Virus record (IMG/VR): IMGVR_UViG_3300009432_000017
Length of the DNA: 64,000 nucleotides
Direction: 5' to 3' (one strand)
From: an uncultured virus (IMG/VR IMGVR_UViG_3300009432_000017)
Lineage: Duplodnaviria > Heunggongvirae > Uroviricota > Caudoviricetes > Schitoviridae
Below are positions 3,201 to 64,000 of this stretch, one piece after another. The position numbers and the translations under genes were made by a program. Under the pieces are notes generated by a model, which was given only the letters and a program-made list of their open reading frames with translations, was not told where the DNA came from and ran no database searches. Position 1 is the stretch's first letter, and each line of letters opens with the position of its first letter.

Positions 3201-3227
3201 AGGTAGCCTAATAGGATTGGGGAGTAT

Positions 3228-3253
3228 AAAAAGCCCCTCGGTTAAAAGGGGGC
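3228..3253 (-). terminator. Intrinsic terminator upstream of the Tad2-like gene
   Basis: Minus strand GCCCCCTTTTAACCGAGGGGC-TTTTT. Confidence 0.65.
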
Positions 3254-3324
3254 AAAAGTTCCATGACACACTGGATATGTGGTAAAGCTCCGTTGGTAAA
3301 CTCTTAACTAAACCAACAGGAGCT

Positions 3325-11488: not shown

Positions 11489-11752
11489 TTAGTGGCTGTA
11501 GAGTGACTGGTTAGTTATCCATCCAGTGACGGAAGTTTCAGAAAGTAACCCTGCTTCTAACATCTCATTAATAGTTTTACATGTACCGTCTACAATCCAT
11601 TCACCATTGACCTGACAAGCAAGCTTGGTCTTTTTATTAATAGACATTAGTGCGTATTTACGAGGGTAATTCTTTTCTTTGAGCTTAACTAGATTGTGCA
11701 TACTTACTTGCCTTAATCTGCTTCCAGTGGTACGTATACTAAAGGTGTACAA
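11489..11752 (-). CDS. Hypothetical protein between two terminators
   Basis: 87-aa ORF, non-ATG start, no clear RBS. Confidence 0.35.
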   Translation of the reverse strand: MYTFSIRTTGSRLRQVSMHNLVKLKEKNYPRKYALMSINKKTKLACQVNGEWIVDGTCKTINEMLEAGLLSETSVTGWITNQSLYSH

Positions 11753-11764
11753 ATAATAGTCAAT

Positions 11765-11789
11765 AAAAAGCCACTTAATGTGGCTTTTT
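11765..11789. terminator. Bidirectional terminator after the holin
   Basis: AAAAAGCCAC-TTAAT-GTGGCTTTTT. Confidence 0.8.
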
Positions 11790-11804
11790 ATTATTAAATA
11801 TTTT

Positions 11805-12194
11805 TTACTTTTTAAAAGTTTGTATAGACTTTTCTATGGAGCGTCCTGCTACATAACCTCCTAAACCCATTTGTAATAATGTCCAGGCTTCTGGTGCAAG
11901 TGGGTTAGCAAGCCAACCAAAACTATCAAATACTACTAAACCTAAGAAAGTGAGCATTGTAATAGGTCGCCAGTTCCGTTGCATCCCGCTTTGGCCATTG
12001 GATTCTGCGTTGATAATAGATGTCTGAGACTGAAGTAATTTAGTTTCATACTCTATAAGTTTTGAGTGCATCTCATTTTGGATAACTGTTAGTTTATTTT
12101 TTAGTGCTAATTTTTCTTCTGTACTGGTGTGCACATCATCAATTAGTTTAGCTGCTGGTTCAAATATACCTGCTATAATGTTCATGATGCTCAT
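11805..12194 (-). CDS. Holin, 3TM (GTA-type) family
   Basis: KLIDDVHTSTEEK...AES...RNWRP...LGGYVAGRSIEK; ATGA-coupled to the endolysin. Confidence 0.85.
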   Translation of the reverse strand: MSIMNIIAGIFEPAAKLIDDVHTSTEEKLALKNKLTVIQNEMHSKLIEYETKLLQSQTSIINAESNGQSGMQRNWRPITMLTFLGLVVFDSFGWLANPLAPEAWTLLQMGLGGYVAGRSIEKSIQTFKK

Positions 12195-12631
12195 AGCTTT
12201 GCACTCCAATCCCAGTAATCCTTAAGGTATTTTTCTGCAGTAGCCTTACCAGTACGATTCCAGTAAGCCTTACAATAAAGTGCTGTGTTTATGTCACCTT
12301 TAGGTAGTGGATTAGTATCCATAAGAAGGTAGTGGCGAGACACCCATATACCATATTCATCATCTTCTTCTAACAAAAAGAAGTCTCTGTGTATGTCGTG
12401 CAGCTCTGCGCGTTTATGTATAGTGTCTGAATTGTCCCATATAGAGTCATGGGTAACTTTCTCTATTTGCTGTAAGCCTCTTGCTGGCCCACCTCCTACT
12501 TGCCGTCTGTATTTACCTTGGGCAGACTCATGCGCGGTAATCATACAAATAGTGGTTACTGCTTCCGGTGAGTACAGATCCCACTTACGTAAGAGAGTCT
12601 GAACAGTGTCTGTAAACTGGGTGTATTTCAT
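12191..12631 (-). CDS. Putative endolysin (lysozyme-like fold)
   Basis: AHES...GGGPARGLQQIE..T, YCKAYWN...GK; start ATG 12631 with AGGA RBS; adjacent to the holin. Confidence 0.75.
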   Translation of the reverse strand: MKYTQFTDTVQTLLRKWDLYSPEAVTTICMITAHESAQGKYRRQVGGGPARGLQQIEKVTHDSIWDNSDTIHKRAELHDIHRDFFLLEEDDEYGIWVSRHYLLMDTNPLPKGDINTALYCKAYWNRTGKATAEKYLKDYWDWSAKL

Positions 12632-12718
12632 AGATGTTCCTTGGTTTAGGTAGGACAAATTAAACACACAAGTTAATACGGATGATTTGGCTGTATGTGT
12701 TTAGGTAATGTAAAGTCC

Positions 12719-47739: not shown

Positions 47740-49905
47740 TTATGCTGCTCGCTTGTTATAAGCTTTGCGTACTGATTGCATAATGGTAGATAGGATCTCT
47801 TCCTCTGAGAGTTTGTCCGGTATCTTCTCGTTCAGAGCAAAGATTGCTTGCTCTGTTTGAGTCACTGTTTTGCCTGAGTCTACAAGTAGCAAACCAAACT
47901 TAATAAGTTGGTTCGACCTGTTACCTAGTCCAGTGTTATTTACAAACCAGCGTTCAAGGTTAGATAGAGATTGTTGGTCTACTAACTTATTTTTACGCTT
48001 CTCGTTTTTACTGGTCTTAGGGATGAACTCAAGAGGGTTAAACAGTATGCCATCATTCTCTACTAGTGTGCTCGACAGACTTAACCACTTGCGGCTACGC
48101 TGTCCCGTACCATCATCTACTGCAAATGGTAACCAGTCATAGATAGCCTGCATGAACTCTTTGTAGTCAGGGCCATCTAGTTTGAGGATGTATTGCATAG
48201 GCATGATAATGCGGTACCTATCTTCACCATCTAGCCCATGGCGCTTAGTAGTGTAGAAGAATGATTTGTAATCCTTCAACAACTCCTGTGCAGTTTGCAT
48301 AGGCACATCACCATCCACATCGATAACCAGTAAACTAAAGCCAGGTTTACATTTGTCTTCACATCTGTGGTTATCTAATAAGTGGTGGGTAACCCAGTGC
48401 ATATCAGGCATTTGAGTAAGCTTACCTACGTTATCCCAGCTAATGTTCTCGCTGAGGTAGTTGTAAGCCACATGGTTTGAATAAGATACGTTTAGGCTTT
48501 CCAAGTCAGTTTCTTTCAGGCTTTCACCTTTAAGGAACTCAATACCATCATTATAGATTTTCTTAATGATGATGTTGTTTTGGTAACCATAGGCTATGGC
48601 CATAGTAAGCATCTCTGCTTTTTGCTGTAGATTACCTTTATAGAAAGGTAAGTCCTCTACCAGCTCAACCTGAGTTACTTGCCTTGGTATATCACCAAGA
48701 TACTTGGCTAACTTAACGTAAGGTCTATCACGGGTGATTAACTTAGCAAAATCTTTACCAGAGTCCTCAACAACTGCTATGGCGTTGTACAAGTGGTCTT
48801 CAGTGACGATAGGGCTGTTATCAATGAAAGCATATGTAGCTGCAAGCTTAAGTGCTTTAAACCAACGGTGCTCCATTTCAATGCGCTTAACAACATCAAA
48901 CTCAGACATCTCTGCTGCACGGTCTTGGCAGTACATGGTGTACTCAATACGCAGCATCTCCTCATCTTTGTTAAGGTTAATTTGCTTCTTGTAGTTAATT
49001 GGATCAGCCAGGTCTAATAGATGCTCTGCCAACTCTTCAATGAACTGAAAGGATTGCTGTGAAGCATTACGCTTCATAATATCCTCAGCAGTTAAATCAA
49101 GTGAACGGTGTACGTCTTTAGTAAATGCAAAAATACATCTACGAGCGTAGCCTTTTTCTAACATGGCATTAAATTCATCTTCTTTCTTAGAACCATCTAG
49201 CAATGAGCTAGGAGTACCAAACATAATCAGGTTACATGGCGTTTGGCCATTTATCTCAGATAGTCTGGTATTCTCTTTGGTATTTTTAGTAAGAGATTCT
49301 TTAACTTTACCTTTGTCGTACAACTCAAGATATTTAGAGAAAGCTTCACTGTTACCAGTAAGGTTGTCTCCAATCTCATCTATCTCAAAGTTAAGTGAGC
49401 CAGCATCAGCTAGTAGAAGTTTATGTCTGAATTGCTTCAGTGCGGGTGCAGTGGCATTATCAAATGAACTTAACCATTGTCCTGACGCTTTGAACTCAGT
49501 ACACAAGGCCTGAAACTCTGCATCTGGATCTGTATTGTTCTTGGCTGCTCTTTCCACGGATAACTTCGCTAAATGCAGCTCAGTGGCATAGGGGAGCAGC
49601 TCGTCTTTGAATCGCTCTGTATATAGAGCACAAACTTCCTCTTCTAAGAAGTTCATAGCTTTTGTCTTTCCGGCGCCTGATGGTGCCAACGCAACTGCAT
49701 ACATATTAATAGGTAAAAGCTTATTGGTGTGCGTTCTCACACTGGCTCTCATCTGAGCTGCAATCTTACCAAAGAAGTAAGATACCAACATTCTGAAGAA
49801 CACTGGGCTGTCATTCTCACAGTGTCCTGATAAGTGCTGTGCTAATTTCTCAGCAACAGGGTGGTACTTTATTTTTGCTGGGTCAAATACGGTTAGTTGT
49901 CTCAC
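47740..49905 (-). CDS. DNA primase (N4 gp43-like)
   Basis: APSGAGKT P-loop, EIDEIG, C-terminal AEP-like IDVDG...YTTKRH...RYR, PriCT-like GNRSNQL. Confidence 0.88.
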   Translation of the reverse strand: MRQLTVFDPAKIKYHPVAEKLAQHLSGHCENDSPVFFRMLVSYFFGKIAAQMRASVRTHTNKLLPINMYAVALAPSGAGKTKAMNFLEEEVCALYTERFKDELLPYATELHLAKLSVERAAKNNTDPDAEFQALCTEFKASGQWLSSFDNATAPALKQFRHKLLLADAGSLNFEIDEIGDNLTGNSEAFSKYLELYDKGKVKESLTKNTKENTRLSEINGQTPCNLIMFGTPSSLLDGSKKEDEFNAMLEKGYARRCIFAFTKDVHRSLDLTAEDIMKRNASQQSFQFIEELAEHLLDLADPINYKKQINLNKDEEMLRIEYTMYCQDRAAEMSEFDVVKRIEMEHRWFKALKLAATYAFIDNSPIVTEDHLYNAIAVVEDSGKDFAKLITRDRPYVKLAKYLGDIPRQVTQVELVEDLPFYKGNLQQKAEMLTMAIAYGYQNNIIIKKIYNDGIEFLKGESLKETDLESLNVSYSNHVAYNYLSENISWDNVGKLTQMPDMHWVTHHLLDNHRCEDKCKPGFSLLVIDVDGDVPMQTAQELLKDYKSFFYTTKRHGLDGEDRYRIIMPMQYILKLDGPDYKEFMQAIYDWLPFAVDDGTGQRSRKWLSLSSTLVENDGILFNPLEFIPKTSKNEKRKNKLVDQQSLSNLERWFVNNTGLGNRSNQLIKFGLLLVDSGKTVTQTEQAIFALNEKIPDKLSEEEILSTIMQSVRKAYNKRAA

Positions 49906-49906
49906 G

Positions 49907-50884
49907 TTAGCCTCTTAGTATAAGTTCACCACTAGCGATTAACCTGTCCTTTTGTTTACAGACAGGAAATGCATCGCAGTATTTACATGCGGTTACGTCA
50001 CCACCTTTTTTAACCACAACACCGCCTTTAAGTGAGGCTTCTAAATCAGCAGCCATTTGGGTGTCAAAGTTCTTAGTGGAACGTATCATTTTTTCTGGAT
50101 TCTTGTAGTACTTCCAGACATCGGCTTTACGCCACAGATCTTTGTCTGAACACTCAGGAATATCTGCTTCATCAGTATCGATATACTTTTTAATATCAGC
50201 TATTTTTCCTCTAATAAAAGATTCGGTAGCTGCTACAGTTTTAAGGGGTAGACGGTACTCAAGGGTGCTAGCATTAGGATACTTGGGTTCTTTGGTACGA
50301 GTAGCCTGCCAGTCTTTAAATATAAACTGTATCGCCATCTCGTCCCGAGTAATGATGTCAGGGTTAAGCCAACGATAAATACTCCCTTGCATGATGTATT
50401 TGTCATCATTGGTTTTATTAATATAGGTGTAGACTGATGTGTTTTTTAAATCTTCTACGCGTCCTTCACCTACAAAGTCAAACTTACCTGAGATAATAAA
50501 GCCATCTATTTCTTTCTCTGAGCGTAGCTCTAGATAGACTGGTATTGTGTCCTCAGTTAAGTCTTCAGGTGCTGGGTTTACTTTAACCTTGTCTATGACC
50601 CTATCAGGGATCCCTAAGTTACTTAGGCCTTGCTTGTAGTTATTTACCCAAGCATTCTCTAATCCATCGTGCACTGCTGTACCTGTTCTAGACGGTATGA
50701 GCGCAGCTACGTCTGGGACGTTAACGCTTTTGTCTACTCTTTTAGTGAGAACAAGCTGACGTATTGGCTTAAGTAATGATGTAGCTGATATGTGGTTTTC
50801 ACGGTTATCGTGGTCGTAGGTGTCATGAGCTAACCATACTGCTACAGACAGCGGTATGTTGCTATTATTGGTATAGGCAGGCAT
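49907..50884 (-). CDS. PD-(D/E)XK exonuclease (N4 gp42-like)
   Basis: SATSLLKP, GTAVHD, ISGKFD...DLK, C-terminal CKYC...C. Confidence 0.88.
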   Translation of the reverse strand: MPAYTNNSNIPLSVAVWLAHDTYDHDNRENHISATSLLKPIRQLVLTKRVDKSVNVPDVAALIPSRTGTAVHDGLENAWVNNYKQGLSNLGIPDRVIDKVKVNPAPEDLTEDTIPVYLELRSEKEIDGFIISGKFDFVGEGRVEDLKNTSVYTYINKTNDDKYIMQGSIYRWLNPDIITRDEMAIQFIFKDWQATRTKEPKYPNASTLEYRLPLKTVAATESFIRGKIADIKKYIDTDEADIPECSDKDLWRKADVWKYYKNPEKMIRSTKNFDTQMAADLEASLKGGVVVKKGGDVTACKYCDAFPVCKQKDRLIASGELILRG

Positions 50885-50958
50885 ATATAGTTCTCTGTAC
50901 ATTGAAATCATTAAACCCAACGGACGTTGGGCTTATAAGTGGGTTTACGGGTAGGAGT

Positions 50959-51396
50959 TTACTTACTTAGTTCTTTCCACAATTCCTTGGCTTCATCTAA
51001 GTTGATACATTTTATTAGTGAAGGGTTAATCATAAAATATTTGTTATCAGGTACTAATTGGTATTTGCGTTGGTAACGCTTAATGACAGGTACAATAATC
51101 TTTGCATCTTTGAGTTGCTTAATGTACCTATAAAAAATTTGGTATGAAGAAGAAGATGTATCTCTAATCCTATCTAAAATAGGGTAAGAGCAAATACCTA
51201 CTTCTGATGTGTAATTATTCTTCAGCTCAATAAATAATACTTGAGCTGCAGGTGTAACTTTTACTAAGACATCGAGTAAGTCTTGTTTGTTGTATCCGTT
51301 GTTTAACGGCACAGTTAATTTAAAAGGTGGGGCAGGCGGTACTATCTTATCTAATGGTTTGAATAGAGTTTTAAACTTTTCATTAGGTATCAACAT
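50959..51396 (-). CDS. AT-rich winged-helix protein, RepL-like
   Basis: FYRYIKQLKDAKII...YFMINPSL resembles the RepL-type wHTH wing motif. Confidence 0.5.
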   Translation of the reverse strand: MLIPNEKFKTLFKPLDKIVPPAPPFKLTVPLNNGYNKQDLLDVLVKVTPAAQVLFIELKNNYTSEVGICSYPILDRIRDTSSSSYQIFYRYIKQLKDAKIIVPVIKRYQRKYQLVPDNKYFMINPSLIKCINLDEAKELWKELSK

Positions 51397-51519
51397 TATT
51401 AGTTACATCTCCAGAACGTTATAAATTACTTTAGCTATAACTATTGATCTTTACTGCTTTTTGCTTTACCGTAAAGACCTTCCCGACATATGCCCAGACC
51501 TACACCCCCCATATACTCT

Positions 51520-51715
51520 TATCAACTAATACTATATAAGTAAGTGCAAGTAAGCATACTACGTATACTTACTTGCACAATGCGAGCGCAGCGGAAGCAT
51601 TGTGCTTATTAAGTAATAACTATATAAGTAATAAAAGGGTAAACGTTTACGTAAGTAAACCTAGTTAATTAAGCTTAACTAAATTTAATTAATGGTACAT
51701 ATGTTGGTACATGAT
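51520..51715. other. AT-rich, palindrome-dense origin-like region
   Basis: Overlapping IRs GTGCAAGTAAG/CTTACTTGCAC and GCACAATGC/GCATTGTGC, direct repeat ACTATATAAGTAA twice, palindromes GTAAACGTTTAC and TTAATTAA. Confidence 0.5.
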
Positions 51716-51794
51716 ACCCAATTAGATTAATAATTCTACTAAAATCAGTCTAGTAAACTAACTTTAATAAGTCTGTCTGAGGAATCGAATTAGT

Positions 51795-52025
51795 TTAACT
51801 AGTTAAAACTCTTTCCTCAATCTCAATCATTTTATCTATAAAACGTTTAGCTTCTTCTCTGGTTTTAGAGTTAGGCAATTGCTCACCGGTAACTCTATGG
51901 GTAGATCTAAAAAAATCTATGTGTTCTGGTTTAGGGATTTTTTTAACTACGGCACGATGCTTATTAATATCAAAGTCTGAACCAGGAATGTACTGAGGAA
52001 TTATGTCGTACTTTTTATATCTCAT
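51795..52025 (-). CDS. Small basic hypothetical protein
   Basis: 76-aa ORF, ATG start. Confidence 0.55.
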   Translation of the reverse strand: MRYKKYDIIPQYIPGSDFDINKHRAVVKKIPKPEHIDFFRSTHRVTGEQLPNSKTREEAKRFIDKMIEIEERVLTS

Positions 52026-52209
52026 AAGTACTTATCTAATTTTTTCATGGCTATCAATGTACGGATTGTAAGTAGGGTAAAAACGGACATTTTTTTTCCT
52101 AATTGGTTAAATGATCTGCAGTCAGTCACTATATTGCAAAAAGATCTTGCACAGTGAATGTCGATGTATATAATGCTGCCCACATCAAGAGGTGAGCAGG
52201 AATATCTCT

Positions 52210-52512
52210 TGTTGGTACATATGATGGTATCAGACTTAGTTAGAAAACATAAAGTCCAATTAAAACATATGTTTAAGTAAGGTTTGTGCTGGCGGGTTCC
52301 GCCTCCAATCATTTATACGTGTAGTACCTTTAAAGTAGTTAAACCATTGTTTTACATAATAAATCTACCATTTGAGTAGATTTTTTTATGTCTGGAATTC
52401 GTACGCATTCGCCTAAATCCGCAAAATGTGTTGGTATTTATGTTGGTACATTTCAGAATTGTGGCGCATAGTGGTAAATGTACCAACAAACCTATAATTA
52501 AATGTACCAACA
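52210..52512. mobile_element. attP-like site: arm-type boxes flanking a tRNA-3'-end core
   Basis: TGTTGGTACAT at 52210 and 52441, variants at 52222 and 52429, inverted ATGTACCAACA at 52478 and 52502; core CGGGTTCCGCCTCCA at 52293-52307; directly upstream of the integrase. Confidence 0.8.
52361..52387 (+). terminator. Terminator downstream of the att core
   Basis: AAATCTAC-CATTTGA-GTAGATTT-TTTT. Confidence 0.7.
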
Positions 52513-52534
52513 AAAGTACATAAGGAATTGACCG

Positions 52535-53803
52535 ATGCCCTTAACTAACTTGGCTTTGGCTAACGCCACGCCAAGAGATAAAGATTATAAGCTGTCTGAT
52601 GGGAAAGGACTGTATTTACTGGTTAAGAAGAATGGTAGTAAATACTGGAGATGGTCATATCGACATGATGGTAAGCAACGGACTATGGCCTTGGGTGTTT
52701 ATCCTGAAGTGGGTGCTAAGACAGTTCGTGAACGTCATACTGAATTAAGAGTAATTTTAGCTACTGGCTCAGATCCTCAGGAGCACTCTAAACAAGTAAA
52801 GTTAGATAAAGTCAAACAAAATGAAAAAGGTGTCATGTTCCATGATGTCTTAGACACTTGGTTTGAAGACTGGAAAACTGAGTACCACGGTAAGACTATT
52901 GTGCGTAACAGTGGGATCATAGATAACTGGATCAAACCATTCACCATAGACCTCCAAGCCAAGGATATGAACGGTACTATTGTCATTGGCTTGATACGTA
53001 GGTTAGAAGCCCTTGATAAGCGTCCTACAGCTCATAAGACTTACACTATTCTCAAGCAGATGTTTGCTTGGTGTATTGCAGAGCCCACCATACCTATTGA
53101 CCGTAATTGGGCCATGGACATTGGTGAACTGAGAAAGCCATTATTAGAGAGTCACTACGCAGCTATGGTGACACCTAAAGAGATAGGTGGCCTGTTGCAC
53201 TCGATAGCAACAAGTAGCTCATTCTGGCTTACTAAGCTCGCTATGCGGTTATCATTACATTGGTTTATCAGACCAGGAGAACTCCGTAATCTGAAGTGGA
53301 GTGATGTTAACTGGGACATGGAGTGTGTTCAGATTGATGCCGAAGATATGAAAAAGACTAAAACGGTTCAAGAGCACTGGGTACCTTTAACTAAACAAAC
53401 TAAAGAAATGCTGTTATTCATCAAACACAACGGCTACGCCTCTGTGTTTGTGTTTCCTTCTGTTAGGACCCTTTGTAAACCAATAAGTGAAAATACAGTT
53501 AATACTGCATTAAAAAGTATGGGCTTCAAAGGTAAGCAAACTGCACACGGCCTCAGAGCCACAGCTAGGACACTATTAGAAGAAGAATTAGGTGAGAATG
53601 CTTTATATGTAGAGCATCAGCTAGCGCACGTAGTGCGTGACGCTAATGGTAGAGCTTACAACCGTACTACTATGCTAGATGAGCGCAGAGAGATGCTACA
53701 ACGTTGGTCTAACTACCTAGATGAGTTGGAGTATAAAGCTACTTACGGTATAGTTATCCAATCCAAGTATGAAACTGCATTAAATAAAAAGGAAGTCGAA
53801 TGA
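52535..53803 (+). CDS. int: Tyrosine integrase, P4/IntA-like
   Basis: Arm-binding N-terminus (DGKGLYLLV..GSKYWR..YR..GKQ..MALGVYP), catalytic RPGE, K, HGLR, QLAH, AYNR; AAGGA RBS. Confidence 0.96.
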   Translation: MPLTNLALANATPRDKDYKLSDGKGLYLLVKKNGSKYWRWSYRHDGKQRTMALGVYPEVGAKTVRERHTELRVILATGSDPQEHSKQVKLDKVKQNEKGVMFHDVLDTWFEDWKTEYHGKTIVRNSGIIDNWIKPFTIDLQAKDMNGTIVIGLIRRLEALDKRPTAHKTYTILKQMFAWCIAEPTIPIDRNWAMDIGELRKPLLESHYAAMVTPKEIGGLLHSIATSSSFWLTKLAMRLSLHWFIRPGELRNLKWSDVNWDMECVQIDAEDMKKTKTVQEHWVPLTKQTKEMLLFIKHNGYASVFVFPSVRTLCKPISENTVNTALKSMGFKGKQTAHGLRATARTLLEEELGENALYVEHQLAHVVRDANGRAYNRTTMLDERREMLQRWSNYLDELEYKATYGIVIQSKYETALNKKEVE

Positions 53804-53908
53804 AAAATTATTATTAAGCTTAGTTGTTATCGGTGCCACTGCTTGCAGCAGCGCACCTAAACGTGAAGTAATTCCTGGTACCGTTGTACAGGTTGTCACT
53901 CGTTGTAA

Positions 53909-54142
53909 TTAATCCCTGGATTGAATACGAGCGTCGACCCATTTCTGTACTTCACTGTCTACCCATCCTACGGCTTTACCAGTTATAGGAACTGGCTTAG
54001 GGAATGAACCTTCCCTAATTAGTTTATGCAGTGTTGTGTGACCAATGCCGGTTACATGAAGTACTTCTGGTTTGCGTAGTAAGCGAGTGAGAGGAATTAC
54101 CTTACCCTCTAAATTATTCTGTGATTCGATTGATTCAAACAT
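53909..54142 (-). CDS. alpA: AlpA-family excisionase / recombination directionality factor
   Basis: LLRKPEVLHVTGIGHTTLHKLIREGSFPKPV.I..KAVGW..SEV..W. Confidence 0.9.
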   Translation of the reverse strand: MFESIESQNNLEGKVIPLTRLLRKPEVLHVTGIGHTTLHKLIREGSFPKPVPITGKAVGWVDSEVQKWVDARIQSRD

Positions 54143-54157
54143 TTTACGTCCTCAACG

Positions 54158-54190
54158 AAAAAAGCCACCTTATTAGGGTGGCTTTTATTT
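54158..54190. terminator. Bidirectional terminator
   Basis: AAAAAGCCACC-TTATTAG-GGTGGCTTTT. Confidence 0.8.
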
Positions 54191-54356
54191 ATTAGTTAGT
54201 TTTACTGTTCAGGCATGTGTGTGGCCATTTGTAGTACATAGGTACACGATTAAACATGCTACTTTTGTATATTCTTATATAAAATTGATACGACCTGAAG
54301 GGGTCTTTAAGCACGGATGCAAGGGCTGGTATCACCGCCTATACTACGAGGAATCT

Positions 54357-55229
54357 TTAGCCTACCACAGTATGACCTGGAATAAGTTGTCTTTGTTGTA
54401 CCCACTCACAGGCATTACCAGACCATACTTGTTTTGAAGCATCCACATGAGTAAATCCTAATTTAGCTGCCTTAGCTAAGGTTAGACCTTTAGAGTTAAC
54501 TGCTTTGAATTGGTGCTCAAATGGTGATGCGTGAACTCGGTCACCTGAAGTAAGCATGTTTACTATTTTTTCTGCTTTTTCTAATGAGGTATCCAGTACC
54601 CTGTAACTGACCTGTGCACAACTGGATGTTGATATATAGTTCAATTCTTTTAAGGTGAACTGGTCTTTTATAATATTAGGTATGTAAGGTAAATGCCATT
54701 CACCCCACTGTAATAATTTTGGTTTGTTAGTAAGAAGGGCTTTTGATACCAAATTACCTAACACCTGTAATTCGGGCTGAGCATCAATGTGGTTGCGTAA
54801 CCATACAAAATTGTTCCACTCACTACCTGAGATAACAATCTTCATTAAAGCCCATGGTTCGAGGATCCGGTTAATGTATTGTTTGTGTAAGCCAAGCTTT
54901 TCTAAGCCCCAATGGAACATACAAGCTGTTCTAGCTGCACTTTTCCATAACCAACCTGCTACTTTACCTCTACGGCTGCTGAGGGTAGCTTTGGCAGACA
55001 TACCAGCCTGGTTCTTAGACCATTCAACTGGCATTGCTGGGTTATCCCAAACTTGCTTACGTACTTTCTTAGCAGGGATAGCACGACTACTTGCTGCATT
55101 CTTTGAAAGGGCTCTGTGAGTCATTACTTCACTGTGGATAAATCGTGGGTATTCCCACTCAAATGAAGCCACTGTTTTACCATTTGGGTTAACAGAATAG
55201 GCTAATAAACTTACTGTAATAAATGACAT
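54357..55229 (-). CDS. thyX: Flavin-dependent thymidylate synthase (phage ThyX-type)
   Basis: YPRFIHSEVMTHR..S.NAASSRAIP, LR....AQPE, CAQVSY, HASPFEH. Confidence 0.88.
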   Translation of the reverse strand: MSFITVSLLAYSVNPNGKTVASFEWEYPRFIHSEVMTHRALSKNAASSRAIPAKKVRKQVWDNPAMPVEWSKNQAGMSAKATLSSRRGKVAGWLWKSAARTACMFHWGLEKLGLHKQYINRILEPWALMKIVISGSEWNNFVWLRNHIDAQPELQVLGNLVSKALLTNKPKLLQWGEWHLPYIPNIIKDQFTLKELNYISTSSCAQVSYRVLDTSLEKAEKIVNMLTSGDRVHASPFEHQFKAVNSKGLTLAKAAKLGFTHVDASKQVWSGNACEWVQQRQLIPGHTVVG

Positions 55230-55738
55230 TAATTGTTTTCTCTTAATTCATTGAAAGTGCCATTAACTAGATCTTGGTATTGGTCGACAGGTACGAGTAC
55301 CCATTTAGGTAACCGATTATGGTTTACCACCACTACACTGTCTTCTGTGATGTGGCCATCTCCTACAGCCTGTCTTAACTCAGTAAGAGACATATTAGGT
55401 GCACGGATACCCAATCTAGGTAAGGAACGTATGTTGTATAGACGCATTTTTGTATAGATAACTTGAAGGCTGTAACCAACTACTTCAGCTATTTCTTCTA
55501 CGCTGTAACCGTTGATCCATAGTGCAGACATATCTGCTTGGAGTTTGGCTTTCCTAATTTCACAACCACTTACTAAGCCCCACCTGTTTCTTCTACACCA
55601 AATAGTGTCAGGAGTGACTTTGTAAATTTTTGCTATTTCCTGGTCTGAGGTACCATCATTAACTAGAGTAGTGATGTGTTCTCTATCTGAATCGAAAGGT
55701 GCTTTCCTAAGCTCGATATTTGGGGAAGTTCTTGCCAT
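55229..55738 (-). CDS. Tandem HTH protein with C-terminal Phd/YefM-like domain
   Basis: SDQEIAKIYKVTPDTI and SVEEIAEVVGYSLQVI HTHs; MSLTELR...VVVVNHNRLPKWVLVPVDQYQDL. Confidence 0.7.
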   Translation of the reverse strand: MARTSPNIELRKAPFDSDREHITTLVNDGTSDQEIAKIYKVTPDTIWCRRNRWGLVSGCEIRKAKLQADMSALWINGYSVEEIAEVVGYSLQVIYTKMRLYNIRSLPRLGIRAPNMSLTELRQAVGDGHITEDSVVVVNHNRLPKWVLVPVDQYQDLVNGTFNELRENN

Positions 55739-55842
55739 GTAATTGATCTACTTGAAAGGAACTTTTACTTATTAGTTGCAAACGCCCTAACAAGTAAGAG
55801 TCTTGTTTAGAAGGGATCAGTGTGTCTGCTAGAACAGGAAGG

Positions 55843-56058
55843 TTATTCTTGTATTTTATTCTTATGGTAGTGGGCGTGATCATTGGCACAATCAACATCA
55901 CAAAATAGTTTCTGAACATCCATTGGCTCATTACACCAGTAGCAATCACCTCTGGGTTTTAAACCCTGGGTAGTATTCCTAATGTTTTCTATGGCTTGGG
56001 CGTTCATGCGCTCTTGTTCTGCACAAGCTGCATCGATTAGGTCAGGGTAGCTATTCAC
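55843..56058 (-). CDS. TraR/DksA-like zinc-finger protein
   Basis: GTG start 56058 with AGGAG RBS; DLIDAA (DxxDxA) plus CYWC...FCDVDC. Confidence 0.65.
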   Translation of the reverse strand: MNSYPDLIDAACAEQERMNAQAIENIRNTTQGLKPRGDCYWCNEPMDVQKLFCDVDCANDHAHYHKNKIQE

Positions 56059-56347
56059 CGCCTCTCTCCTTATATGCTGCCTCGGCGCCAAGAGCAAAGT
56101 AAGCTGAACCACCTTCATAGTTGTCAAGTTTGAAACCTCCTTGCTGGGTACGCACAGCTTTAAGTATTACCATAAATAACCAGCCTTGTTCTTCGCTAAG
56201 CTCAGAGCCTGTTATAGTGTTAAATGCTTTAACAGTATTGGCCATAGAGCGTTCACCCTTACCTTTACTGTCGTAGGTGGTGCCTTTATCTACTAAATGG
56301 CTTTGTGCGGTTTGTAGTACTTCTGCCGCAACTACAGGATTGCCCAT
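56051..56347 (-). CDS. DUF6378-like phage protein
   Basis: ERSM..TV.AFN.ITG..LSE.QGW.FM.ILK.VR....DNY....AY.AL. Confidence 0.75.
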   Translation of the reverse strand: MGNPVVAAEVLQTAQSHLVDKGTTYDSKGKGERSMANTVKAFNTITGSELSEEQGWLFMVILKAVRTQQGGFKLDNYEGGSAYFALGAEAAYKERGGE

Positions 56348-56520
56348 TCTATTACCCCTTTTATTGGTTTGTTATCTAGTGATCTGTAGTCAGGATCTGA
56401 CGAGTAAGAAGTAGCGTAGTTAGGCCTTATGGCTACATACTCTCCGTCAACTGTCCTAACAAGTAGCTTTATAAGTGGTGTCGGGAAAGTACTGGCAGGA
56501 TGCCATTTACGTTTATTCAT
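56332..56520 (-). CDS. Hypothetical protein
   Basis: 62-aa ORF overlapping both neighbours in the operon. Confidence 0.7.
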   Translation of the reverse strand: MNKRKWHPASTFPTPLIKLLVRTVDGEYVAIRPNYATSYSSDPDYRSLDNKPIKGVIEWAIL

Positions 56521-56993
56521 GCTTCCACTATCTCGTTTGAACTGAGTTTTTTAAAATCAAATGCACCAAGTGATTCTAATATTTCAAAAGCCTCAGATTC
56601 TTTCCAATCCTTAAGATAAGGCGTAGCAAGCCAACCATAACTAAGTAAGTGTCTGTGGTTGAATTTCTTGCCTAAAGCCAAGTGATGGGTATTAAGTGCA
56701 TCAATCATTTCTTCCTGTCGTACAGGGTGATTGACGGCAATTTCTTCTGACTTCATGTACCGTTTGTTATTATCATCGATACCGAATACGGCTATGAACA
56801 CAGACCACTGGTGTCGTAAGGTAGATAAAAGCCTTACTTTGTTTTCTGTGATAGGTACTTTGGTTACGCTACGTAAGTCGATGAGTTGGCACCCATCTTT
56901 ACCAGCAATACATCCAATGGCTGAATTTTTTAATGCCACCTTAGCTACTAAGTCTAGTTGCTTTAGTGGGTTATACCTCTTGTTCTTACGCAT
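56517..56993 (-). CDS. Hypothetical protein
   Basis: 158-aa ORF with GAGG RBS. Confidence 0.8.
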   Translation of the reverse strand: MRKNKRYNPLKQLDLVAKVALKNSAIGCIAGKDGCQLIDLRSVTKVPITENKVRLLSTLRHQWSVFIAVFGIDDNNKRYMKSEEIAVNHPVRQEEMIDALNTHHLALGKKFNHRHLLSYGWLATPYLKDWKESEAFEILESLGAFDFKKLSSNEIVEA

Positions 56994-57024
56994 AATAACG
57001 TAATACCTCTTAAAAGAAAAAGCC

Positions 57025-59592
57025 CTATGAAGTTAGGGCTAATTTTATTGTTGCTCTTATGGACTCTTGATCTGCACCATTAGGGATAACTATCTCTTCT
57101 TTCCAGCTTGGGTAGAACAAAGATAACTCACCTCCTAAACCAACTGTATCGTGCTGTATTTCAGGCAACTCTTGCCATTCCATACATTGCACTAAGTTGA
57201 TGTTTAACCATTCCACTACCTCAATATCATCTCTTACTATGAAGTACTGGGCATCATGTATGTGAGCGACAGGTAGAATGTCATACCGGTAATCGGATTC
57301 CAGTGTTCTTTCTTGTAGGTCTATACCTGCACGGTTGTTGAGTAACCCATATGACTGACCAAGTGCATTACCGCCAGTTCTTCCTTCAGCCTGGGCTTCA
57401 TATGGAGTCTTGCGGCTATTCATTGCGGTTTGGTGGAGCAGAGGTGTTCTAACTCGTAGCCCAAAGGCCACTGTTAGGTAACCTACTTTAGCTGCGTCGT
57501 CTAACTTAGACTTTACCCACTCATCTGAGTGAACATACAAGGTGTGATAGTTAAGTTCTATGGATAAGGATTCTTCCTTAGTCAATCCAACGTCATTCAT
57601 TAACCCATGGTAAGTACCACCGTAGGTTAGTAAGAATGTAGGTTCTTTGGAGTCCTGCCTAAAATCTGGGTATAGAACTTTGATGCTGTTTATACTCACC
57701 ACAGTATTTACTATGTCAGGCATCTGAGCACCGTAGTAACTATGTGCCCTTAAGCAATGTCCATCGAAACCATCTGTGTAGACTTTAAGTTTCATTGGAT
57801 CTTGTGTGGTCAGTGCAGAGATTCTGTCTTCTAAAGAAGCAAAATCAGCTCCCATGAATACAAAACCAGGTGGAGCTACAAAACATGCCTTAATAATCTT
57901 GGCGTACTTTGAGCCAGTACTAGGAATGTTTTGTAAGTTGGGCCCAGATGAACTAAGTCGACCAGAGACTGTACCACCTAAGTTGAAATTACCGTGAAGG
58001 TAGTGGCAACCATCAGCCTTTAATACAGAGTTTTCAAGGGCAACAATAAAGGTGTTTAGTATCTTAGCTGCAGCAGAAAAGTCTTGTAGGGCACACATAA
58101 GTTCCTTAATAGCAGGATCATCAGTGTGGTTTACCAGCTTTTTGAGTGTCTTAGCTCCCACGGCAGGTGCCTTGGCTTTAGTCTTATCAATAATAGGTAA
58201 GTCCAAGTAGTCATACAGTAGCTGTTGCATCTGGAGGTTAGAGTTAGGGTTAAAGACATAGTCGTCAAAATGAGATAAGGGATGTACTTTTTTTACCAAC
58301 TTAGCATTGGCTTTATTCATCTCTTGCTCACGCAGTATGTAACCGAACTGGTCAATTATATCACTGGACATAATTAGGTCAGTAGCAGCTTTAATAGCTG
58401 TTTCTAGTATAACCCTTGCTTCAGCAACCCTAGTCATATCGACAGGCATACCAGTAAGTTCCATCTGCAGTATAACTTTAACGGATGGCTTCATAATAGT
58501 GCTGTAAATGTCTAACTGCTTACCAGCTACCATTTCAGGATAGTGCTTATCAAATACAAACCAGGTTGATAAACAATCTACCAGGTTGTACTTCATTAAG
58601 ACTGCAGGATCCATTTTAGTAATATCAGTGATGCCATCTTCAGCGTAGTTACCCGCGAACTCATGAGCTGCTGCTTTTAGACCAAGGACATTTCCGGCAC
58701 ATGAATTTGTAGCCAGATACCTAATAAGTTTAGTGTCATGAAAATTACGAGTAAGTAACTCAATACCGTTCTGCTTACCTTTTTCATCTAGTAGGTGCTC
58801 CATAAATAATGTGTTAATTAGGATCTTCATATCGAAATTGGCATTGTGATAAAGCAGGGTGCCTATGTACGTGTAGAAGAAGTTCTTAAGTAATTCCCTT
58901 ACTTTGGTATTGGATTCATTTTTATAGCTGTCACACCATATAACGATGCCGTTGTGTTTGTCCCAAGCAAAACCAATAGTGACAACCCCTGTTTCCCAGA
59001 AATTGAGGCTAAGTGTTTCTACATCTACAGAGAGTGCAGGGTGTTGCTTGATATCACTTAGATAACCATAAACATCTGCAGGTGTGTGGATGTACTTAGC
59101 TGACTTAATAATGTCTGCGCCAAGATCTTTGTGAGTACCTCTTACAAATTTAGATAACGTCTTAAGACCCATATCTAATTTGTCTTGTAAATCTGGGTTG
59201 TAGTAGAGCCCTTGGTAGTTAGGAACTAATACAACGTTCATGAACTCAAAGCCTTTTATGGCACAAGGCAGGACGTATCCATAATGTACTTCTGCTTTGC
59301 GTTGATTAGTGATTGTCTTAAAGTAGTTGGCGTCTGCTACAAGAAGTATTTTGGTACCTAGATCTTTGAGGATAGGTAACAAGTCTTGTAAGTAAGCTTT
59401 CTGTAACGGAACTGCAGGCTTTTTAGATGGGCCATACACTAGGTCGAAAGCACATATATTATTTGGCTTAATCCCTAGTGGTTTAAGTGGGTTTATATAA
59501 GCATTCTCTAAAGGTGCTTTGACTAACGAAGAAGGCTTAATAAGTAAGGCTACATCGTAAGTATCACTCTTATCGAAGACGATATGCTGCAT
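57025..59592 (-). CDS. DNA polymerase, family A (N4 gp39-like)
   Basis: Exonuclease DVET, HNANFD, YNLVD; TVSGRLSS.PNLQN, motif A DFASLE, motif B RQDSKEPTFLLTYGG, motif C HIHDA. Confidence 0.96.
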   Translation of the reverse strand: MQHIVFDKSDTYDVALLIKPSSLVKAPLENAYINPLKPLGIKPNNICAFDLVYGPSKKPAVPLQKAYLQDLLPILKDLGTKILLVADANYFKTITNQRKAEVHYGYVLPCAIKGFEFMNVVLVPNYQGLYYNPDLQDKLDMGLKTLSKFVRGTHKDLGADIIKSAKYIHTPADVYGYLSDIKQHPALSVDVETLSLNFWETGVVTIGFAWDKHNGIVIWCDSYKNESNTKVRELLKNFFYTYIGTLLYHNANFDMKILINTLFMEHLLDEKGKQNGIELLTRNFHDTKLIRYLATNSCAGNVLGLKAAAHEFAGNYAEDGITDITKMDPAVLMKYNLVDCLSTWFVFDKHYPEMVAGKQLDIYSTIMKPSVKVILQMELTGMPVDMTRVAEARVILETAIKAATDLIMSSDIIDQFGYILREQEMNKANAKLVKKVHPLSHFDDYVFNPNSNLQMQQLLYDYLDLPIIDKTKAKAPAVGAKTLKKLVNHTDDPAIKELMCALQDFSAAAKILNTFIVALENSVLKADGCHYLHGNFNLGGTVSGRLSSSGPNLQNIPSTGSKYAKIIKACFVAPPGFVFMGADFASLEDRISALTTQDPMKLKVYTDGFDGHCLRAHSYYGAQMPDIVNTVVSINSIKVLYPDFRQDSKEPTFLLTYGGTYHGLMNDVGLTKEESLSIELNYHTLYVHSDEWVKSKLDDAAKVGYLTVAFGLRVRTPLLHQTAMNSRKTPYEAQAEGRTGGNALGQSYGLLNNRAGIDLQERTLESDYRYDILPVAHIHDAQYFIVRDDIEVVEWLNINLVQCMEWQELPEIQHDTVGLGGELSLFYPSWKEEIVIPNGADQESIRATIKLALTS

Positions 59593-59596
59593 ATGA

Positions 59597-60115
59597 TTAT
59601 CCTTTTATGGATTTGATAACCACCTGTACGCTAATAAGTTTAAGAGTTTCTTTATGGGTTTCTTTAAATTTATATATTTTCTCTTTTGAAAGAGAAGGGT
59701 AGCTAGAATCAGGTAGAGGTAATGTAGGGTGAATGCACTCAGGGAGTAATTCGCGTAGGTCATTGGTGTTGCCCATAAGATTAAAGGCAGAGACTAGTAT
59801 GCTATCAACTCTGTGCTGTCTGTCAAGATGGACATCCCAGCTAGCAATGTGGTCTTTAAAGTCATCAACTAGTGATGAGTGTAGAGGCTTACATTGAAAT
59901 GGCTGAGAATAAACTAACTGATGTTGGTAGTGCTTTAAACCTAACCTGAATGCCGCAATGGATCTAGTTAGATTTCTATGCTTGAGTGCAAAGTCGTCTA
60001 CCACTTTCTGCTTACTATTATTGAAAGAGATGAGTAGAAAGTCCTTTATGGTATTGAAACAATTTACCTTAAAGTTACGCGGGTACTCACGTTTACTGTA
60101 GCTGGATTCCTCCAT
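59597..60115 (-). CDS. Hypothetical protein between helicase and polymerase
   Basis: 172-aa ORF in the operon with AGGAG RBS. Confidence 0.75.
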   Translation of the reverse strand: MEESSYSKREYPRNFKVNCFNTIKDFLLISFNNSKQKVVDDFALKHRNLTRSIAAFRLGLKHYQHQLVYSQPFQCKPLHSSLVDDFKDHIASWDVHLDRQHRVDSILVSAFNLMGNTNDLRELLPECIHPTLPLPDSSYPSLSKEKIYKFKETHKETLKLISVQVVIKSIKG

Positions 60116-61385
60116 TAGTTGCTCCTAGATATTTAGGGGGTAGGTCACCATACATGATGACTTGATCTGAAGGTCTTGAAGAGGCCACATATAATAATCT
60201 GGCTGTATCGCTAGGCATGTTACATCTACCTATGTCAGATAAGTCTATGAAGACTTGGCCATAGGTAGAGCCCTGTGATTTGTGAACAGTTGAGGCATAT
60301 GGCTGACGTAGATCACCCCATGTGTCCTTTATGTTGAAATACTTTTTCCAGTTTTTCTCTTTGGCGTAGTGCTTCATGAGAGCTTTGGCATCTTTTTGAG
60401 AGGTGGGAACAAAAATAACCCCTATATTTTCTAAGTAAACTTCATAGCCATCTATACCGAACATGGTAGTAGGTATAGAACTAACCACCTTAACAGGTGA
60501 ATCAGTACTGGCCTCAATTTTACCATAGATCATTATTGGACTATTAGTTATCAGAGTCTCTCCCGAAGGGAAGGGCTCTGTGATACCGCGTAAATCAGCA
60601 ATATAGTTGTTGTAGTCATTCACTCTTGTATTAGACCAAGCCAATACTTTAGCTGACTTATCTGCTACGTAATCTTTGCTTAGAAATGCTGCATCTATTA
60701 AAGACTGAAACTCAGTTCCAGATACATGAGTAACCATGCTACTGGTACCAGTGATTATGTCTTTGAACATTGAGCTTGTAACTGATTCACGGAACTGAGC
60801 TGATAACTCTTGTATTGGGCCTTGATTACGCATAATGGTAGTCAAATGTACTGTGGGAATTTTCCCATCAAACACAGGAGACTTAAAGGTACCCGGTTGT
60901 AGTAGCTGACATGGATCACCCATGAATACTATTTTACAAGATGTACTGGTCATTTCTCTTACTTTAAGTAAGAGCTCTGCATTCATGAAACTGGCTTCAT
61001 CTATAAAGATAAGAGTATCTGATTTTACATATGCACCTTTGGCAAGCTTAAGGAAAGTCTCACCTGTGTCGTAATTATTTCTTAAAACTAAGCCAAGGTA
61101 ACTATGTATAGTACTTGGCTCAGTATTAAGTGAGTGTGCTAATACATGCGCTGCTTTACGTGTTGTAGCAGTAATCTGTACGTTCTGAGGGACAGTTTTA
61201 GTTTTACCTAGTGCTTTAGCTGCAGCTTCATACTTATCTAAGTTATCAATTAAGTATTTAACTAGAGTAGTTTTACCCGTACCAGCAAAGCCAGATATAA
61301 CTAGCTCTGATTGGGCAGGGTGAAACAGAAATTCTACAAATGAGTCAACGGCAGCTAGTTGACAGGAATTTAAAGTGATAGTCAC
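60093..61385 (-). CDS. SF1B (RecD/Dda-like) DNA helicase (N4 gp37-like)
   Basis: GFAGTGKT, IDEAS, GDPCQL, YASTVHKSQGST, LLYVASSR; GTG start with AAGGAG RBS. Confidence 0.93.
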   Translation of the reverse strand: MTITLNSCQLAAVDSFVEFLFHPAQSELVISGFAGTGKTTLVKYLIDNLDKYEAAAKALGKTKTVPQNVQITATTRKAAHVLAHSLNTEPSTIHSYLGLVLRNNYDTGETFLKLAKGAYVKSDTLIFIDEASFMNAELLLKVREMTSTSCKIVFMGDPCQLLQPGTFKSPVFDGKIPTVHLTTIMRNQGPIQELSAQFRESVTSSMFKDIITGTSSMVTHVSGTEFQSLIDAAFLSKDYVADKSAKVLAWSNTRVNDYNNYIADLRGITEPFPSGETLITNSPIMIYGKIEASTDSPVKVVSSIPTTMFGIDGYEVYLENIGVIFVPTSQKDAKALMKHYAKEKNWKKYFNIKDTWGDLRQPYASTVHKSQGSTYGQVFIDLSDIGRCNMPSDTARLLYVASSRPSDQVIMYGDLPPKYLGATNGGIQLQ

Positions 61386-63985: not shown

Positions 63986-64000
63986 TTACTCCTCCTTATT

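Follow-up and report, generated by a model that had tools for sequence, protein, structure and literature searches.

A predicted P4/CP4-57-type recombination cassette in a fixed lysogeny slot of a probably temperate N4-like phage

The N4-like phages are the textbook case of a transcription programme begun by an injected polymerase, in N4 itself a cascade that runs from the virion RNA polymerase (vRNAP) via RNAP II to the host RNA polymerase acting with SSB, and the family, whose members are employed and recommended as strictly lytic agents, has long been regarded as purely lytic. What, then, is the meaning of an integrase, an excisionase and an attP-like site in the genome of such a phage, and how might an injected-polymerase cascade be silenced and restarted in a lysogen? 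The window analysed here is a stretch of 64 kb from an uncultured virus, and the original prediction that it stems from a genome with N4 core genes and a giant vRNAP is well supported. Its DNA polymerase shares 53% identity with the enzymes of Klebsiella/Salmonella N4-like phages, a 3714-aa ORF (32772-43916) encodes the giant virion RNA polymerase, the central 1101 aa of which have matches to annotated vRNAPs from 295 records, the best at 2e-48, and with an SU10-type portal, a major head protein and a terminase, besides primase, exonuclease and SSB, the N4-type core of DNA polymerase, primase, exonuclease, SSB, portal, major capsid protein and terminase is present. PF00940, the RNAP II family, is unmatched among the window ORFs but found in the early regions of the relatives G406, G407 and G408, and the RNAP II genes are probably located in that portion of the genome which the 64-kb window does not cover.

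Between two strong hairpins within the replication block, where the module had indeed been placed, lies what we consider, with a probability of about three in four, to be a self-contained P4/CP4-57-type site-specific recombination cassette (51.54-54.19 kb), consisting of an attP, an arm-binding integrase (Int) and an AlpA/Vis-type recombination directionality factor (RDF) in a fixed exchangeable slot. The left hairpin (51544-51578, minus strand), a minus-strand transcriptional boundary from the terminator scan with a 16-bp stem and a T-rich tail, has a folding energy of -24.7 kcal/mol (z -4.67) that none of 200 shuffles equalled, and the right one is a bidirectional hairpin terminator (54160-54186; z -3.68 on the minus and -3.83 on the plus strand), directly after which the relatives X2 and X3 begin to diverge from the window. 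Position 50959, initially given as the start of the cassette, has to be abandoned as such, since it takes in orf145 (50959-51396, minus strand), a conserved backbone gene for a clade-specific winged-helix protein that lies beside the slot and outside the cassette.

The int gene (52535-53803, plus strand) is an uninterrupted ORF of 422 codons' worth of protein (422 aa), and judged by its sequence the product is a tyrosine integrase of the P4/CP4-57 type, possessing the arm domain and, in the R-K-H-R-H-Y set, the catalytic residues that had been claimed for it. Pfam matches comprise Arm-DNA-bind_3 (PF13356; residues 3-87, 4e-23), Phage_int_M and Phage_integrase (PF00589; 3.6e-15), PHROG 1 integrase is matched at 1.3e-56, and the arm-binding N-terminal domain resembles solved 'CP4-like integrase' domains in the PDB (3ju0, 1.7e-28; 3jtz, 1.1e-17). 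When aligned with lambda Int and P4 Int, R246, H338, R341 and H365 are invariant and Y375 is found opposite a tyrosine of P4 Int, and all of these residues together with K273, which we take to be the catalytic lysine, are invariant in 12 integrase family members. Eight metagenomic orthologues from several samples, of which two belong to contigs 74.6 and 76.2 kb long, share 71-93% identity with Int, and the nearest cellular integrase, from Glaciecola punicea, is only 58% identical.

Upstream of int, an attP-like site had been proposed, and this notion is in good agreement with the distribution of the repeat TTGGTACAT, which occurs in five exact copies in the 64 kb, all five of them inside 51704-52510, a 0.8-kb stretch adjoining int. 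If up to one mismatch is allowed there are 33 matches as compared to a shuffle mean of 21.9, and 33 was reached in one of 100 shuffles. The arm copies form tandem pairs in 12-nt phase that flank a 199-nt interval on either side: the P-arm pair (52212-52232, plus strand) consists of TTGGTACAT and a degenerate copy, and the P'-arm (52431-52514) of a direct tandem pair (52431-52451) and two inverted TAAATGTACCAACAAA copies (52475-52490 and 52499-52514), the interval for the putative crossover core being 52233-52430. A further tandem pair, distal and likewise in 12-nt phase, is formed by the arm-type repeats ATGGTACAT / TTGGTACAT about 600 nt from the presumed core (51692-51712, plus strand). A putative core that lies next to an integrase gene and is flanked left and right by repeated arm sites constitutes an attP-type layout, and the site resembles that of satellite phage P4 (NC_001609) in having tandem 12-nt arm repeats either side of the core at similar spacing and arm sites just upstream of the int start. 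In the P4 annotation the arm pairs are 185 nt apart with a 20-bp core between them, and transferring this spacing would put the core at approximately 52287-52319, which takes in, and is only consistent with, the earlier proposed core at 52293-52307, where a small GC hairpin falls short of significance (z -0.65). The relative L006 is 96% identical at the nucleotide level across 52102-52272, P-arm included, its contig beginning at the equivalent of 52272. A perfect TATAAT (52493-52498), read directly from the sequence, lies 37 nt upstream of the int start and is bracketed by the inverted TAAATGTACCAACAAA copies; the promoter scan did not list an int promoter because the -35 is poor. In P4, Int bound at arm sites autoregulates int, and Int on the arm sites that bracket the -10 hexamer would be expected to do the same here.

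That arm repeats as well as phage genes are found to the left and to the right furthermore points to the non-integrated form, as had been suggested, and this bears on the question whether the module might have arisen differently, either by insertion of a small integrative element or satellite into the phage genome or as a chimera of the assembly. The terminators bounding the cassette, the slightly lower GC of the region (0.366-0.397 at 50-54 kb versus about 0.41) and the differences in integrase type among relatives would be in keeping with such an origin, but an inserted element should be flanked by attL and attR with one-sided arms each, and it is disfavoured since the arm repeats here flank one interval on both sides. 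As to a chimera, for which read coverage had been put forward as a check, the region is continuous, and of even depth, in three assemblies. L001, a second contig in IMG/VR, runs collinear with the window over 49282-60227 at 99.9%, and one of the Logan contigs, which assemble the probable source run separately, spans 49628-54684 with a depth of 11.3 against 11.9 and 10.8 in the flanks, so that the module is not chimeric; in addition, relatives from two other studies join int/alpA to thyX or orf158, i.e. to an N4-type backbone. In either form this explanation is extremely improbable.

Convergent to int, with 105 nt separating the two stop codons, is alpA (53909-54142, minus strand; 77 aa), encoding an AlpA/Vis-type excisionase and regulator. 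Its product matches PF05930 (Pfam, 1.6e-16) and PHROG 2790 'excisionase and transcriptional regulator', and it belongs to the same Pfam family as P4 Vis/ORF88, which carries that very annotation, with 47% identity over 57 aa. As a small HTH protein of PF05930 encoded next to an integrase, AlpA is predicted to be the RDF, and the convergent arrangement first described for it can be upheld. Since the right-hand terminator sits 15 nt upstream of its start region, alpA has no room for a promoter of its own. Compared with P4, the Int proteins are alike in domain architecture at 31% identity, whereas P4 vis is found 5 kb away from int and alpA adjoins it, and whereas P4 is a satellite and the carrier of the present cassette an N4-like virus of 67-75 kb. 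The families are also common to IntA and AlpA of the E. coli CP4-57 prophage, which pairs an Arm-DNA-bind_3 integrase with a PF05930 AlpA. In CP4-57, integration takes place at ssrA and AlpA activates intA.

As a rule, P4-type integrases act at tRNA or tmRNA genes, and P4 itself integrates into a tRNA-Leu gene. The window site, by contrast, has no tRNA- or tmRNA-like sequence according to ARAGORN (0 genes) and Rfam (nothing above threshold), and its target may be of a different kind. The search for integrated copies that had been called for was likewise negative for junctions, attB and host: with 216 nt spanning the core interval as query, only chance-level matches were obtained, in unrelated genes, among 400 sampled Gammaproteobacteria, a 20-mer of the proposed core matched in IMG/VR only the contig of the phage itself, and attL/attR junctions were absent from the contigs of three runs, which is weak evidence because contigs drop rare variants. 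It could accordingly be argued that the cassette is a recently captured and effectively inert passenger in a phage that is lytic and never forms stable lysogens, and the lack of an obvious alpA promoter and the weakness of that of int would fit as well. Such a view is nonetheless in poor agreement with an intact Int that has all catalytic residues and is 71-93% conserved across those eight relatives, with arm sites that are 96% identical in L006, and with the int/xis pair that relatives, one of them classed as a provirus, keep in the same slot, and we consider it distinctly improbable.

The slot lies between a backbone gene on its right flank, for a ThyX-like thymidylate synthase (54357-55229, minus strand; PHROG 85, 1.1e-66), and orf145 plus exonuclease on the other side; orf145 homologues adjoin the exonuclease in L003, L004, L005 and L006, and in G406, G407 and G408, too, ThyX neighbours the int/xis pair. 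All three of these complete close relatives hold int and xis in the same slot, G406 and G408 an Arm-DNA-bind_2 Int with a DUF1233 protein and G407 a 328-aa Int with a PF07825 Exc, and we can conclude that clade members fill one fixed lysogeny slot with exchangeable, non-homologous int/xis pairs. G406, a whole N4-like genome, is classed as a provirus by IMG/VR, and with Int occupying bases 1-1269 and the homologue of orf145 occupying 74583-75002 out of 75,038 the record is linearised exactly at the slot; since it is without host flanks, its provirus status rests on the IMG/VR label and these record-end positions. The G406 integrase differs in type from that of the window phage and is 58% identical to Int of the free-form G408; an IS110 transposase is also present in G406. 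No integrase was found in two more distant complete N4-like relatives, G417 and G418. The clade is very probably temperate, given that three relatives hold int/xis in the slot and that G406 is provirus-classed and opened there between its integrase and orf145 homologue, and the window phage probably belongs to this temperate branch of the N4-like family, as originally predicted, because it has the complete P4-style kit for insertion and exit.

It had also been suspected that the lifestyle as such might not be new, and a temperate N4-like lifestyle is indeed already known from metagenomes (Zheng et al. 2023, mSystems, PMC10654107). The portions of that survey considered here report 54 genomes that resemble the present one in carrying N4 hallmark genes together with an integrase, with marine habitats as the commonest source and lysogeny genes concentrated in particular subfamilies, as well as 40 integrated N4-like proviral regions; these portions list the hallmark genes and do not describe attP anatomy, a fixed slot, int/xis exchange or flanking DNA-binding genes. 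What is added by our analysis is a clean P4-type attP/Int/Vis anatomy, predicted in an N4-like phage from a marine source, evidence for a dedicated slot with swapped int/xis pairs in one clade, and two concrete candidate regulators.

After infection, Int would be expressed from a host-type promoter of its own, enclosed by the arm sites, and would recombine attP with a host attB, leading to a prophage of the order int ... early ... late ... exonuclease-orf145, and AlpA together with Int would reverse the integration. How such a prophage is kept silent is less obvious. The original prediction noted no visible HTH+S24 CI gene in the 64 kb, and the HTH_3, Peptidase_S24, CI and Cro families are indeed without a match among the 67 ORFs, of 68 in the window, that were scanned with Pfam, and do not occur among the PHROG matches; G406-G408 likewise show none of the CI/S24/Cro families in 96 ORFs from their early and variable regions, and LexA boxes are not enriched (1 match, 1.6 expected). 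Should the source contig measure 66,856 nt, the window would leave out only about 2.9 kb of it, a stretch that in relatives is occupied by the RNAP II genes. These results would agree with a lysogeny that needs no repressor, in which early genes are read only by the injected vRNAP, the integrated genome is silent by default and induction proceeds via host-RNAP-driven polymerase expression, and such a scheme also fits the vRNAP, RNAP II and host RNAP/SSB cascade of N4. A missing family match does not however mean a missing repressor, and that none is visible is not the same as there being none, since two clade-specific DNA-binding proteins are encoded at the edges of the slot; furthermore, an 85-aa HTH_28 protein is found in the early-side cluster, and the scheme leaves unexplained how a cell with fresh active vRNAP halts the cascade to establish lysogeny. 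We therefore regard it as improbable.

The first of the two proteins is the orf145 product, which has no tblastn match in 50,697 phage records. The top VIA matches of its AF2 model (pLDDT 87) are all winged-helix domains (Z 5.0-5.9), Foldseek returned nothing at E<=0.001, and the middling structural matches include the replication initiators RepA and ORC/Cdc6, making it a candidate regulator or origin-binding protein. A second candidate regulator is a clade-specific 169-aa protein with two small HTH domains (55229-55738, minus strand; HTH_23/HTH_7 in Pfam), which is conserved in G406-G408, is absent from the same 50,697 records by tblastn, and gives an AF2 model (pLDDT 79) with HTH-domain matches of Z<=6.3. 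That one or both of them act as an unrecognised non-CI immunity or switch protein is a tentative possibility, and one that we regard as somewhat more probable than the complete lack of a repressor. All four integrase-bearing genomes (the window phage, G406, G407 and G408) have both genes, the phage records have neither, G417 and G418, the complete relatives without an integrase, give no match to the orf145 profile, the predicted folds are of DNA-binding type, and orf145 is directly adjoined by a 400-nt non-coding stretch with repeats and hairpins. Co-occurrence within a single clade may however reflect nothing more than common descent, the integrase-less fragment G411 has a stretch weakly similar to orf145 (E 1.4e-4), the replication initiators among the structural matches make an origin-binding role fit equally well, and no operator motif was found common to the regions needing control. 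The two ideas may be combined into lysogeny without a CI-type repressor, in which the cascade would be silent in the lysogen because the virion RNA polymerase is absent there, and the winged-helix or double-HTH protein at the slot edge would shut it at establishment and release it at induction. This is speculative and on balance unlikely, but would, if true, represent a type of lysogeny switch that is undescribed for any phage, and the silencing and restart of the cascade become testable once the host or attB is known.

The cassette finally holds one further small ORF, orf76 (51795-52025, minus strand), which has no Pfam or PHROG match and is 93% identical at the amino acid level in L006, the codon differences being 6 synonymous versus 7 non-synonymous.

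A temperate lifestyle is supported for the clade of N4-like phages to which the window belongs and is likely for the window's phage itself, and the observation behind the original prediction, namely an integrase, an AlpA and an attP-like site in an N4-like phage, is confirmed. The integrase (422 aa, 52535-53803, plus strand) is the uninterrupted P4-type enzyme it was taken to be, with Arm-DNA-bind_3, Phage_int_M and Phage_integrase domains and with its catalytic residues in place, since R246, H338, R341 and H365 are invariant in an alignment with lambda Int and P4 Int, Y375 stands opposite a P4 Int tyrosine, and R246, K273, H338, R341, H365 and Y375 are the same in all 11 relatives (58-93% identical) aligned with the integrase. 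Its N-terminal 98 residues furthermore match arm-binding domains of known structure that were deposited under the names 'Phage integrase' and 'CP4-like integrase'. The notion of a convergent AlpA-type RDF is likewise borne out by the AlpA-family ORF of 77 aa (53909-54142, minus strand), which is convergent with the integrase and 47% identical over 57 residues to P4 ORF88, the sole PF05930 member of P4 and annotated as excisionase and transcriptional regulator.

The backbone around these genes is that of an N4-like podophage, of which the window represents most of the genome. The DNA polymerase (57025-59592) shares about 53% identity with its counterparts in N4-like phages of Klebsiella, Salmonella and Escherichia, the central part of a 3714-aa ORF (32772-43916) finds matches among the annotated virion RNA polymerases of 295 phage records (best E 2e-48), and there are genes for an SU10-type portal, major head protein, large terminase, primase, exonuclease, SSB and Dda-like helicase, in agreement with the N4 core and giant vRNAP noted earlier. 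Late genes occupy the plus strand (3414-43916) and replication genes the minus strand (43944-63985), and the integrase, alpA and the arm-repeat cluster are all three found within the replication block. RNAP II genes, which in relatives are located between the ATPase gene and the terminase side, are absent from the window; if a 66,856-nt contig bearing the 169-aa double-HTH protein (55229-55738, minus strand) is the source, about 2.9 kb, roughly the size of the RNAP II genes together, would lie outside the window, and a search with the ATPase gene for sequence past base 64000 gave distant relatives only. Elsewhere in the backbone, a 184-aa protein (2715-3269, minus strand) has a Tad2-like (Thoeris anti-defence 2) domain (PF11195 2.6e-24) and its gene adjoins an N4 gp49-family gene (2409-2711), a stand-alone response-regulator receiver domain (PF00072 2.5e-17) is encoded among the late and structural genes (10895-11350, plus strand), and three minus-strand ORFs within the plus-strand late block (11489-12667), one of them a GTA-type 3-TM holin (PF11351 4.3e-11), probably form a lysis cassette.

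That the integrase module could be an assembly chimera is contradicted by independent contigs and even depth, and we can conclude that it is not one. Another IMG/VR contig, L001 (10,946 nt), runs collinear with 49282-60227 at 99.9%, and in the separately built assembly of the probable source run (Logan's contigs) a contig bridges 49628-54684 at a depth of 11.3, against 11.9 and 10.8 in the flanks. Furthermore, a 3064-nt contig of a relative of about 90% identity from a sediment run links int to thyX, and a 3910-nt contig from a seawater run links int and alpA to the orf158 region.

The cassette is bounded by two strong hairpins, on the left by a predicted minus-strand terminator (51544-51578, 16-bp stem, -24.7 kcal/mol, z -4.67) and on the right by a bidirectional terminator hairpin (54160-54186, z -3.7 and -3.8), which ends 15 nt upstream of the alpA start region, alpA itself having a good Shine-Dalgarno sequence. 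Relatives from two other sequencing studies show similar sequence between about 52100 and 54170 and diverge directly after the second hairpin, and the loose contig ends at 52096 and 54193 reflect cargo that differs from phage to phage. A small cargo hot spot is found inside the cassette at 52020-52100, where L006, an IMG/VR locus from the closest relative (87-92% amino acid identity in exonuclease and primase), has a 120-aa ORF (184-546) that is absent from the window, and the relative from one of those two studies has yet another sequence left of 52096. The winged-helix gene orf145 (50959-51396, minus strand), which had been counted with the cassette, does not belong to it, since its homologues adjoin the exonuclease gene in four related contigs. 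Near the left hairpin, ACTATATAAGTAA occurs in two exact copies 88 nt apart (51531-51631), which flank the 16-bp stem and a second small hairpin; this pair might serve as origin, operator or RNA element, and its 12-nt core, CTATATAAGTAA, has no exact copies elsewhere in the window, so that with two local exact copies only it is ruled out as a general phage promoter.

The attP-like site proposed beside the integrase is substantiated by its repeats. All five exact occurrences of the 9-mer TTGGTACAT in the 64 kb fall within 51704-52510, tandem arm-repeat pairs with a 12-nt phase are found at 51692-51712, 52212-52232 and 52431-52451, and TAAATGTACCAACAAA is present in two inverted copies, at 52475-52490 and at 52499-52514; the clustering of arm repeats upstream of the integrase exceeds chance. 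The annotated attP of P4 is of the same design, with a 20-bp core flanked on either side by tandem 12-nt arm repeats and with further arm repeats just upstream of int as in the window, and its core-proximal arm pairs are 185 nt apart as compared to 199 nt here. If the P4 spacing is transferred, the core would fall at roughly 52287-52319, which is geometry and not proof. The core originally predicted at 52293-52307 lies inside this range, but the small GC hairpin found there is not significant (z -0.65) and no attB was found. The contig of L006 starts at the equivalent of 52272 and is 96% identical from there to 52102, a weak hint of an assembly break at the att site unless the position is due to chance. 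Within the same stretch, orf96 (52022-52312) was rejected as a gene, as it shows 2 synonymous versus 5 non-synonymous differences and its nucleotides are better conserved than its amino acids, and it is probably non-coding attP DNA; orf76 (51795-52025) is conserved and uninformative. No tRNA-like sequence was found at the site, and this is unusual for an integrase of the P4/CP4-57 type. Between the two inverted arm copies lies a perfect TATAAT (52493-52498), 37 nt before the int start, with AGGA 8 nt ahead of the int ATG; the promoter scan did not list this TATAAT and the -35 is poor. Int bound to its arm sites would cover the int promoter and might thereby regulate its own synthesis. P4 Int autoregulates int in a like manner.

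The notion that the clade integrates through a slot between the genes for ThyX (54357-55229 in the window) and orf145 has good but indirect support from related genomes. An exonuclease search of IMG/VR gave 13 loci, the window's own contig among them, and a homologue of orf145 lies beside the exonuclease in four (L003-L006) and is missing from the other eight (L007-L014). In all three complete records of these four, the stretch from ThyX to orf145 contains an integrase gene and an excisionase gene, of families other than those of the window: G407 (71,350 nt, with terminal repeats) has a 328-aa integrase and a PF07825 excisionase, while G408 (73,480 nt) and G406 (75,038 nt) both have an Arm-DNA-bind_2 integrase and a DUF1233 excisionase. 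Over all related records searched PF00589 is present in 3 of 13, and among complete ones in 3 of 5, the two complete records without it (G417 and G418) being more remote, their ATPases only 40-45% identical. G406, a provirus by IMG/VR classification, is a whole N4-like genome running from its integrase (1-1269, with the stop codon at base 1) to its orf145 homologue (74583-75002), so that its ends lie precisely at the point where an attP in the slot would open it, whereas G408, whose integrase is 58% identical to that of G406, has the unopened arrangement; G406 is known without host flanks. G406 also carries an IS110-family transposase (PF02371 1.1e-23, L117:4328-5362) between its ligase and ThyX genes.

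Integrase-bearing N4-like genomes had been suspected to be on record already, and this is so: the accessible part of Zheng et al. 2023 (PMC10654107) describes lysogeny hallmark genes in 54 N4-like genomes, which cluster in certain subfamilies and come most commonly from marine samples, as well as 40 integrated proviral regions, and speculates that integrases were gained by recombination. To what that part of the study contains, the present analysis adds a fixed slot with exchangeable int/xis pairs, the P4-like attP anatomy of the window's phage and two clade-specific candidate regulators flanking the slot.

The phage split at 52293-52307, as attL and attR would have it, was found neither in bacterial genomes nor in metagenome contigs, nor in the contigs of three sequencing runs, the probable source and two others that contain relatives, and the genomes and contigs searched likewise gave no attB and no host. 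The core interval (52225-52440) had matches at E<=1 in 233 of 400 sampled Gammaproteobacteria, all of them short, and a cluster of matches on the GC-rich word 52286-52310 was dismissed as attB since it sits in eleven unrelated ORFs, as expected by chance. A two-arm-site pattern gave 36 loci in metagenome contigs; by tblastn at E<=1e-4 none of them encodes a relative of any of the 14 proteins that the window has at 47740-59592, and short repeat similarity is confined to two. In IMG/VR viral contigs an arm-site pattern and a 20-mer of the proposed core hit the window's own contig only. The integrase itself has eight metagenomic orthologues of 71-93% identity, two of them on contigs of 76,234 and 74,574 nt, and its closest cellular homologue is that of Glaciecola punicea (WP_070111573.1, 58% identical), which together with the 41% GC gives a hint, no more, of a marine gammaproteobacterial host. 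An integrase alignment searched against bacterial genome contigs gave 30 loci, the G. punicea homologue not among them and none of the close family, these being full-length integrases of 30-39% identity or short N-terminal fragments; a second alignment found no close relative in IMG/VR viral contigs except L001, and the integrase profile reached at best 365 bits in the 400 Gammaproteobacteria, where the close family is absent.

The claim that no CI is visible stands, since HTH_3, Peptidase_S24, CI and Cro families have no match by Pfam in 67 of the 68 non-overlapping window ORFs (all but the vRNAP) or by PHROGs in 53, and none in the early and variable regions of G406-G408 (96 ORFs), where only weak generic HTH matches occur. 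A LexA box is likewise not enriched, its one match lying within a structural gene against 1.6 expected. It does not follow that there is no repressor, because two DNA-binding proteins, orf145 and the 169-aa protein, flank the slot, as they do in all four integrase-bearing genomes, and a repressor-free mechanism is a tentative idea; our literature search found no paper on the regulation of N4-like lysogeny. Searched by tblastn against 50,697 phage records, neither protein gave a match. Two small HTH domains are recognised in the 169-aa protein, and orf145 has a predicted winged-helix domain (pLDDT 87) whose top structural matches are all winged helices (ORC/Cdc6, TFIIE, ArsR, CodY, RepA and MarR) at middling Z scores of 5.0-5.9, Foldseek giving nothing at E<=0.001. 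Either protein could be a switch protein, but orf145 could equally be an origin-binding protein, because its gene adjoins 400 nt of non-coding DNA in which repeats and hairpins occur. The association of orf145 with an integrase is limited to one clade and is blurred by a weak orf145-like match (E 1.4e-4) in an integrase-less fragment. Among other genes, an early-region protein of G407 (L122:1665-2126) has a domain like the RNA polymerase alpha subunit C-terminal domain (PF03118 1.3e-08) and its gene adjoins that of RNAP II, and at 55843-56347 (minus strand) of the window a DksA-like zinc-finger protein (PHROG 54) and a DUF6378 protein overlap just upstream of the double-HTH gene.
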